Below are positions 23,632-26,345 of a stretch of DNA of 64,000 nucleotides, one piece after another. Location: positions 1-64,000 of the forward strand of contig CAWBWI010000005.1 in the NCBI GenBank assembly GCA_963792585.1, given 5' to 3'. The stretch comes from Candidatus Eiseniibacteriota bacterium. GTDB taxonomy: Bacteria; Eisenbacteria; RBG-16-71-46; CAIMUX01; VGJL01. How positions within the stretch are numbered: position 1 is the first letter of the stretch; every line of letters begins with the position of its first letter. Made by a program: the position numbers and the translations under genes. The notes beneath the pieces were generated by a model. The model ran no database searches. It worked only from the letters and a program-made list of their open reading frames with translations, and was not told where the DNA came from.

Positions 23632-23837
23632 GCTATGCATTACCCGCATTTTTCTTAACAATCAAATACAATATTTAATACAAGAGTGAAGTGCTTGATA
23701 GGTATAGTTTTGAGAGAAAAGAAAATGCGGGAGTTGAGTTATGGAAAAGTGGGCAGCAAAAGAATTGTGCTACGCAGAATTAGGTGATGCACGGAGTTTA
23801 AAGTCTATTTAAAGTTTTTTAATTACAAGCTTAACCC

Positions 23838-25757
23838 ATGAATCGTCAATATGTAACTCGGAATCATCAGCAGAAAAAGAATGCTAGCTCTTTAACGAGT
23901 GGAATTTTGCAGCGCACTGCTGTGAGTTCACTGCCAGAGAACAAAGTTGAACTAAATCAAAATCAGAAAGAGAAATCAACACACTATGAAGGGTCAGGTT
24001 TTCATCAAGATTTTACTCGTATACCTTTACATAGCAAAAGAGAATCGGTAACTCAAGCACAGGGATTAATTGCTGATAACTTAACCTCAGAGGAGCAACG
24101 CCCCAACAAAACTGGCTTGCCAGAGAGTATCAAAATAGGCATTGAAAACCTCTCTGGGTACTCTATGGATGATGTGAGGGTACATTACAACTCCGATAAA
24201 CCGGGGCAATTGCAGGCAAATGCTTATGCACAGGGTACGGATATTCATCTTGCTTCGGGGCAGGAGAAGAATTTGCCACATGAAGCTTGGCATGTTGTAC
24301 AGCAAAAGCAGGGGCGGGTAAAGCCAACGTTGCAGACTAAGGGAGTGAGAATAAATGATGACAAAGGCTTGGAGAAAGAGGCAGATATAATGGGGCTTAA
24401 TGCCTCACAAAATAAAAGTCAGGAAGATGAAAATCACGATAGTAACCAACATTCGACCTCACTGATTGCTCAAAAAAAAGAAACTACGACTACCCTAAGT
24501 AATGTCATACAAAAAAACAGTAAACTAACCAATATAAAGTCTGACGGTCCTTATGATCCTCCATTTACTATTCTGGAAAGAGAACTACCAGGAGTCAAGT
24601 TATTTTTGAGTAGCACAAATGCTAATGATTCAAATAACCCGTCAAGTCTTCAATCTCAGTATGAGCGTCCAGTAGAAGTTACGGCAGAGATAATAGGTTC
24701 AAGACGACAGGTAGGTACGCGAGTTTCAAATAATATAACTTCAGTAATTGGTAATTTTGGAAATCAAGAACTATTAATCAGAAAAGGAACTCGTAGCCAA
24801 ACATTTCAAGGTGGACACCTAATTGGTGATCAATTGCTTAACAAGGGTATAAATAGTATGGTTGATTGGAATTTAGCTCCTCAAAATTTAGATTTCAATC
24901 ATCCTGTTTATTTTGGGTTGGCTGAAGAATTGATTTTCCAAGGAGTAGTTAACCCAAATACTAATCGGATAATCTAGTCGATACCAATCATTGTCAACGT
25001 TAAATTAGAGTACCCCACTTCAACCTTTGATGTGACTGTTCAAGACTTAGTAAACCATAATGTTATAGCAGGCAATGACCCTGGACTCATCCCTATTAAC
25101 CGTAGCAAAACTATCCAGTTACCAAATCGTGTTCCTAACAAATGGAATCTAACAGCAGAGTCAGAGTACAAATTGAGTCAAGGCAGTGCAGATTTTCCAC
25201 TGTATCCACTTACGGATAAACAAGAGAAAGCATTTAATTCTAACAATGACTTAAGTACTCCATTAAGTGCGTATGATTTTCTCGTTAGTTCTCCTAATCT
25301 TCAAAATGTTAATGGAAAACTTATGATTGGAAGAAATTCAGAATTAAAACTGTTTGGAATGCAAGGTGATACGGATACAGCAAATAACAATTCTGGTCGT
25401 ACTCTAGCATTACCAACTATCTCAGCACCAATTTATCTCCCTCCACCAATTTTTACAACTCCCTTAAATCTTAATCAAGAGCTATATAAAAATCTAGGAA
25501 ATTTCTCTCTTGATACTATAAAAATCTTCAGTAGTATTCCTGGAGTAAAGAAAACTCATGTAGACAAGATGTCTCAACTAGTAAAAAGACGGTTCAAAAC
25601 AATTGCTTCTAAGGATGAAAATAGCAGTACACGTCCACTAAAAAAGCGTAAAATATTTGAAGACCATGATAATTTTGTATCCTTTCTAATACGAGACATC
25701 AGAAATACTGAATTACAAAAAGCCTTGAAACTTGACAGCAGTATTGAATATAAATAG
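23838..25757 (+). CDS. DUF4157 (eCIS core domain) protein with a putative His-Me-finger (DNA/RNA non-specific) nuclease; in-frame TAG at 24975-24977
   Basis: PNKTGLP...[19 protein letters not shown]...[10 protein letters not shown]...[16 protein letters not shown] (DUF4157), then GGHLIGDQL...NLAPQN..FN. ORFs 23838-24977 and 25032-25757 are in the same frame, separated only by one stop. Confidence 0.8.
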
Positions 25758-25830
25758 TGATTAGTACACCAACACTTCCACCCAAACGCCGAGGAAAGTC
25801 TACTGGTTGGCAACCGGGTAAACAACGTTC
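25757..25830 (+). pseudogene. Transposase C-terminal fragment
   Basis: ISTPTLPPKRRGKSTGWQPGKQR resembles the TP..PK.RGKSPGW..G..R tail of a cyanobacterial DDE transposase family (recalled from memory). Confidence 0.5.
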
Positions 25831-26020
25831 TTGGATGCGTAACAGTCGTTGGTAGGCTTTTAGGCGATAATTATACATTTTCCCGAAAAATAGAAATCCC
25901 TGGAATCTTGTTCTGTTCCCTGATCCTTCCTGTTCTCTATTCCTTCCCAAAATTTGCAATTGCAACGTAATAACCTAACTCCCCAAACCTTATCCTCTAC
26001 GAAGAATCCCCAGAAGAGAT

Positions 26021-26116
26021 TTAGTAATCATCGCTGAACAATTTGAAGAACTTTATACCCTCGCACCACCAGAAAAACGCCAGCCTTTTTTAGATGCATT
26101 AATCTACCCAATCAAC
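26021..26116 (+). pseudogene. Fragment of a STAND-type (nSTAND1-like) NTPase Walker-B region
   Basis: LVIIAEQFEELYTLAPPEKRQPFLDAL resembles the LLxxDQFEELxT...FLDxL segment. It abuts the right inverted repeat. Confidence 0.5.
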
Positions 26117-26345
26117 ATTCTGCGTGGCACAATTCCTCTGCTGCCCACTTTTCCATAACTCAACTCCCGCATTTTCTTTTCTCTCAAAACTATACCTATC
26201 AAGCACTTCACTCTTGTATTAAATATTGTGTTTGATTGTTAAGAAAGATGCGGGTAATGAATAGCTGCCGATTTGGGGAGGGCTAGTCCGGGGTAAATTT
26301 GTAGTGCATTATCCTGAAAAATACTGCTACTCAGGAAATTTGACG

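Follow-up and report, generated by a model that had tools for sequence, protein, structure and literature searches.

A 2,632-bp unit in the window (the whole stretch of 64,000 nucleotides analysed here) is probably what remains of two copies of one cyanobacterial IS4/IS50-like element, placed separately and since eroded to two inverted left-end stubs, and not a cassette that arrived in one piece. Both arms are authentic left ends, each stands on its own palindromic-repeat target half with no common target duplication, and the interior consists of three unrelated pieces joined directly to the stubs. An earlier note on this DNA had read the unit as a mobile cassette moving eCIS effectors, a reading that we find weakly supported.

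Genomic setting

The window is cyanobacterial from position 1 to about 35.4 kb, at 37-44% GC, and continues as DNA of 66-70% GC; the cyanobacterial genome proposed previously holds for the first part and not for the remainder. At the chimeric junction, at about 35400-35600, Nostocales-like DNA of about 39% GC is fused mid-gene to 66-70% GC DNA of the main assembly. The source assembly (G000) comprises 5.4 Mb at about 65% GC, and its contig C5 is cyanobacterial in the first 35.4 kb only. The findings for positions 1-35.4 kb concern an organism other than G000. Because G000 is not the cyanobacterial host, searches of this assembly are uninformative on copy number: BLAST with the arm matched the two window arms alone, and PF14706 had no match there.

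The unit lies between a site-2 protease gene and msrB (Table 1). Among the neighbouring conserved genes 2/6 are broken, so some of the stops are perhaps sequencing errors. A gene for a polyketide synthase and one for a SNF2-type helicase, at 431-8246 and 18.3-21.9 kb, are split into several ORF pieces, which reflects either sequencing error or pseudogenes. In genomes G063, G064 and G065 a cyclase gene comes after msrB and the site-2 protease does not, placing the right arm at a synteny break; in G063 and G124 the site-2 protease lies elsewhere, not adjacent to msrB. The nearest Nostocaceae are 74-85% identical, too distant for an empty-site test.

Table 1. Features in and around the unit (window coordinates) and two examples of intact parent elements
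Feature	Position	Strand	Remarks
Site-2 protease M50 + CBS gene, left neighbour	22425..23555	+	One in-frame stop
G/C palindromic intergenic repeats	23575..23632	+	Last half-repeat (..TCCCCTTTATAAGGG) is the left arm target half-site
Left-end stub 1, IS4/IS50-like	23633..23793	+	73-81% to parent left ends
Parts of stub 1	TIR (28 bp) 23633-23660; leader; transposase start 23741; frame stop 23812	+	
DUF4157/eCIS_core + predicted NS_2-type nuclease gene	23838..25757	+	639 codons read with X
NF041680-family transposase 3' tail, unrelated	25759..25852	+	Positions 404-427 of 439, E 0.0035
nSTAND1 NTPase mid-gene fragment	25982..26116	+	PF20703 positions 114-145 of 379, E 1.6e-4, below curated cut-off
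Left-end stub 2, 148 bp, inverted	26117..26264	-	TIR 26237-26264; transposase start 26156
Half of a different palindromic repeat (CTGCCGATTTGGGGAGGG..)	26265..26301	+	Right arm target half-site; no duplicate of the left flank
msrB, right neighbour	26349..26841	-	Frameshift near codon 143
Parent example L124, Anabaenopsis elenkinii			NF033590
Parent example L174, Nostoc sp. 210A			NF033590

Both arms are left ends of one element

The arms (23632-23780 and 26117-26265) are inverted repeats of 149 nt, 96% complementary, with six substitutions and no indels, as the earlier note had described. Five of the six substitutions are transitions, and the divergence amounts to 4%. The second-longest inverted pair between positions 20 and 30 kb measures only 29 nt at 76%, so the arm pair is far above chance. 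The 149-nt arms stood up to re-examination, but their proposed termini required correction: the IS termini proper are 23633 and 26264, and the outermost G on either side belongs to the flank. The left arm is homologous to parent elements as far as about 23793 (161 bp), and the right arm over 148 bp.

Each arm contains the first codons of a transposase, as had been stated, and the arm translations are MEKWAAKELCYAELGDARSLKSI and MEKWAAEELCHAEC, each ending in a stop. When compared with 11 distinct TIRs from TSD-flanked copies, both window TIRs keep every invariant position; each has one base absent from that set, at a variable position. The statement that no transposase lies between the arms proved correct for the IS50 type, for which tblastn gave no match, and the tail of another transposase is present. 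We found no sigma-70-like promoter or promoter consensus in 23500-23900, an interval that includes the left arm, and arm-driven expression is thus unsupported. No relevant match was found on plasmids for the arm, the cargo DNA, the 21-aa peptide or the cargo protein, and the single match in a viral scan has downstream sequence unlike the arm. A candidate cryptic inner TIR at about 26095-26115 was rejected, as it falls within the nSTAND1 coding sequence.

The parent family in Nostocaceae

Intact parents, which the earlier note had proposed to look for, occur across Nostocaceae. They are 1.57-1.66 kb long and have 28-bp TIRs and a transposase of 450-459 aa, the N-terminus of which resembles the arm peptides. 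The transposase of the Anabaenopsis elenkinii example matches Tnp_DNA_bind (5.9e-20), Dimer_Tnp_Tn5 (5.8e-19) and NF033590 (448 bits, cut-off 160), and its translation shows Y(2)R(3)E(6)K, as expected of a Tn5-type transposase in the IS50 subgroup. The parents and the NF033590 match confirm the previous assignment of both arms to IS4/IS50 left ends. The IS50 subgroup end signature is given as CW------Y---CA-A--W- in Table 1 of PMC2266710; the arms fit this signature save for a G at position 14, where the relatives have A (4/11) or G (7/11). The TSDs of the relatives, at 9-12 bp, are inside the range of the IS4 family (about 10 bp) and above the 8-9 bp listed for the IS50 subgroup.

In a search of Nostocaceae genomes, with two candidates scored per genome, 80 of 389 matched the arm, none of them closely, and identity to parent left ends is 73-81%. 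A pattern scan for the terminal motif recovered at least 126 metagenome stretches; in species genomes it recovered 123, the titles being almost all cyanobacterial among the matches listed. Hosts of the same IS4 group comprise cyanobacteria and higher-GC organisms. Relatives insert into G/C palindromic intergenic repeats with duplications of 9-12 bp. At loci L124-L390 and metagenome loci L002-L123, insertions mostly fall in the middle of palindromic repeats of the CCCCT..AGGGG type.

MITEs of about 210-220 bp with parent TIRs are abundant, and the non-autonomous derivatives that bear TSDs measure 1,038 bp and about 210-220 bp (one of 219 bp). In Calothrix sp. PCC 7716, a 4,789-bp IS50-like element is present in four identical copies (L206:1240-6028 and L361-L363), each with a 9-10 bp TSD. 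An IS4-type transposase gene is nested within it, it also has an ORF of 126 aa, and the genome holds a fifth left-end match. This element is an active passenger-carrying form, and the cyanobacterial IS4/IS50-like family demonstrably mobilises both non-autonomous and passenger-bearing units.

The interior between the arms

The interior was previously described as a DUF4157 gene plus gene scraps, and we can now name the scraps as an NF041680-family transposase tail and an nSTAND1 fragment. The cargo gene begins with an ATG 44 nt past the end of the left stub and has an internal stop at 24975-24977, which the earlier note leaves unmentioned. Its product matches DUF4157/eCIS_core (PF13699) at E 2.7e-10 and 42.8 bits, where the cut-off is 22. 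Full-length homologues of 611-654 aa share 44-51% identity, and the motif GGHL..WNLAPQN is invariant in the alignment. Endonuclea_NS_2 is matched by 11 of the 16 aligned proteins (best 4e-7); the window protein itself reaches E 0.003 and 18 bits, below the cut-off of 27. Based on the DUF4157 domain, the motif and the Endonuclea_NS_2 matches, we predict that the cargo is a nuclease effector. Of the earlier description as an eCIS-type nuclease effector, the DUF4157 domain and an NS_2-like motif are thus retained, with the nuclease predicted only and the gene internally stopped. The protein had no match among PDB sequences, and a single-sequence structure model (pLDDT 44.5) was too poor for a fold search.

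The C-terminus of the cargo protein was detected in 4 of 389 Nostocaceae genomes, as distant matches of different architecture, and in 0/5, 0/52 and 0/144 in further searches. No arm-type TIR was found within about 1.5 kb on either side of the four distant matches. Inspection by eye of the ORFs in the 35-kb cyanobacterial segment recognised no eCIS operon, and a PatA-like query returned no loci.

The NF041680 tail begins directly past the cargo stop, and its DNA matches sequences in G063 and G064 at 77-78%. The nSTAND1 fragment is truncated by the right arm; its DNA match lies inside a long WD40-containing frame in G003. We infer that this patchwork is the residue of serial deletions.

Flanks and target-site duplications

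The flanks CCCCTTTATAAGGG and CTGCCGATTTGGGG contain no exact TSD (0 bp) around the unit, and beyond 1 bp neither outer flank repeats the other, directly or in inverted form. Half-sites similar to those at the window arms flank the ends of relatives. Of the 53 paired ends in relatives whose flanks are readable, 24 have exact TSDs; by hand count, these are present in 17/23 full-length elements, 7/26 shorter derivatives and 0/4 others. Since TSDs are often missing from the shorter derivatives, their absence at the window is not decisive. A missing TSD is typical of decayed or hybrid copies.

At four loci (L152, L305, L319 and L360), the left and right flanks are mutual reverse complements without direct repeats, owing either to end homogenisation or to mis-scaffolding. 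If these loci do record end homogenisation, they would lend some credence to the idea that the window unit was an ordinary left/right passenger element, the right end of which was replaced by left-end sequence when the template switched from one 28-bp TIR to the other. We consider such a history very improbable, given that the outer flanks of the window unit are not inverted copies of this kind, that the right-end sequence leaves no trace, and that the flank pattern of the relatives may come from mis-scaffolded repeats.

The target half-sites also bear on whether the inverted arms are an assembly or read artefact, produced by fold-back or by mis-joining where repeats had collapsed, in a chimeric contig of low coverage. 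The contig is indeed chimeric, and two of the six neighbouring conserved genes are broken. Nevertheless, an artefact is very improbable: the arms differ by six substitutions without indels, their homology ends at a biological IS terminus, each occupies a distinct, family-typical target half-site, and the flanking genes are unduplicated.

Same-end pairs and solo stubs in relatives

We surveyed 104 distinct left-end sites in relatives, chosen by similarity to the arm, and found no left/left pair among them. At 57 sites the left end is paired with a right end or an unclassified TIR, 35 are solo (at least 4 kb of inward DNA read without a partner) and 12 have too little DNA; some of the 57 partners were called with a permissive motif allowing 4 mismatches and seem to be spurious (L142, L287, L296, L320, L335), and these were retained in the counts. 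Fourteen of the 35 solo stubs end at 110-200 bp, like the window arms. Likewise, 25 more deeply searched genomes contained no inward-facing left/left pair within 10 kb. The further inverted left/left pairs that the earlier note had suggested looking for were thus not encountered, and the pattern that it had named as contradicting a cassette, with the arm present as dispersed single fragments, applies to 35 of the 104 sites.

Two inverted arrangements of other kinds were observed. In G149 (L372:1303-5724), two identical whole copies lie inverted around a Uma2 gene with their left ends 1.28 kb apart, and their outer ends form a right/right composite-like unit. In G067 (L371:1244-6302), an inverted right/right stub pair (89 bp, 94%) encloses acnB (aconitase B) and chlB. 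It has neither TSD nor transposase and shows a window-like architecture around housekeeping genes, in a draft assembly where one flank recurs on another contig, so it is possibly mis-assembled.

Origin of the unit

Several observations favour the remnant over a one-piece cassette. The window unit has no TSD, as against exact TSDs of 9-12 bp in 17 of 23 full-length relatives. The survey yielded no left/left pair and many solo ends, including those that stop at stub length. Inverted whole copies (L372) and right/right stubs around housekeeping genes (L371) exist. The interior holds scraps, the arms have diverged by 4%, mostly through transitions, and synteny breaks at the right arm. Moreover, both local IS hopping and heavy IS fragmentation are on record in PMC4369082, which gives 37% of ISs at under 15% of full length across 67 genomes.

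Such a remnant would form if two IS copies came into opposite orientation, by a local hop, by independent insertion into neighbouring repeats or by IS-mediated inversion. Inward deletions would then strip each transposase and most of the intervening DNA, with the DUF4157-nuclease gene remaining. Some observations tell against this account. The stubs end almost alike (148 and 161 bp), which two independent deletions give only sometimes; the family moves non-autonomous and passenger units (1,038 bp, 219 bp and 4,789 bp); and the cargo gene is trimmed closely on both sides.

Alternatively, the unit may be a true left/left mobile insertion cassette (MIC), moved in trans by the parent transposase, the TSD of which disappeared later when it recombined with another copy. 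This is rather unlikely in our judgement, even though both TIRs keep every invariant base, the stubs are of similar length and the family moves non-autonomous derivatives as well as a passenger element of 4.8 kb. The rarity of the cargo in Nostocaceae (4/389, distant) would be expected of a recent acquisition, and effector-carrying MICs are known (PMC4337579). Such a cassette has to be reconciled with the missing TSD, the lack of a second left/left pair in 104 sites, the lack of TIRs closer than about 1.5 kb to the four distant matches of the cargo, the debris-like interior between arms that have diverged by 4%, and a cargo gene that contains a stop, whether genuine or introduced by sequencing. 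It is doubtful that the unit is a symmetric left/left natural mini-Tn5 of a repeat-targeting cyanobacterial IS50-like element, one that carries orphan effector genes of contractile injection systems from one intergenic palindrome to another and expresses its cargo from the left-end leader. The missing TSD, the count of 0/104 and an interior like deletion debris do not sustain the earlier claim that the unit moves or moved effector genes.

As the remnant that we favour, the unit represents ordinary IS decay and shows how chance can build something MIC-like around a toxin-like gene. The 28-bp TIRs both look intact, and judging from these ends the relic could act as a natural mini-Tn5 or MIC if its host has the parent transposase. 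If mobile, it would offer a route for orphan DUF4157 effectors to spread among cyanobacteria and would extend MICs to IS50-like elements. The parent family, with its insertion into G/C palindromic repeats, its MITEs and its 4.8-kb passenger form, is perhaps the finding of wider use.

Comparison with known systems

MICs are an established class (PMC6199540, PMC3913671, PMC4337579). As these sources describe them, MIC231 of Bacillus cereus (IS4 family, IS231 subgroup) and the Xanthomonas TALE/T3SE MICs carry a passenger gene between IS-derived inverted repeats, have no transposase and measure 0.7-3 kb, and the window unit is alike in these respects. It differs in having no target duplication, no demonstrated mobility and no second copy (the host genome being absent), and also in its stubs of 150 bp that include the transposase start, its IS50-like rather than IS231 or Tn3 ends and the debris inside. 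Inverted IS-related repeats, a passenger CDS and the absence of a transposase are all found at the window, but a TSD around the unit is not, and we therefore class it as MIC-like rather than as a MIC.

Other elements with two like ends provide a second comparison. MIC231A1 is said to have two left IS231 ends. The outside end of Tn5 is its transposase-start end. According to PMC7664229, the Tn5 transposase works on the two outside ends of Tn5, and PMC4337579 describes an effector-carrying Tn3 derivative with two left IRs as a recombination chimera. The symmetric left/left geometry noted earlier is therefore real, in that there are two left ends, but it is not unusual beside the Tn5 outside ends, the MICs and the Tn3 chimera of these sources (PMC7664229, PMC4337579). 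Tn5, a composite of IS50L and IS50R, and mini-Tn5 resemble the window unit in having two inverted IS50-type ends that face outward (PMC7664229). In contrast to Tn5, the window ISs are cut to about 150 bp and lack a cis transposase; they have 28-bp TIRs and a preference for palindromic repeats. A composite transposon has two whole ISs, at least one of them active; the window has stubs of 161 bp and 148 bp only.

A further likeness is to the cyanobacterial IS4/IS50-like element (NF033590) with its MITEs and deletion derivatives, which shares with the window arms the 28-bp TIR, the leader, the transposase N-terminus and the type of target. Unlike the window, none of the 57 paired left ends of these relatives has a left partner.

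With respect to the cargo, DUF4157 is given as a signature of eCIS-associated toxins in PMC11297309, and like those toxins the window protein combines an N-terminal DUF4157 domain with a C-terminal predicted nuclease (PMC11297309). It differs from them in that its gene contains a stop, its nuclease match does not reach the Pfam cut-off and no eCIS operon was recognised in the 35 kb. The C-terminal part, at about 25635-25660 of the window, also contains a basic RPLKKRK stretch, which we take to resemble a nuclear localisation signal; similar basic patches occur in some of the homologues.
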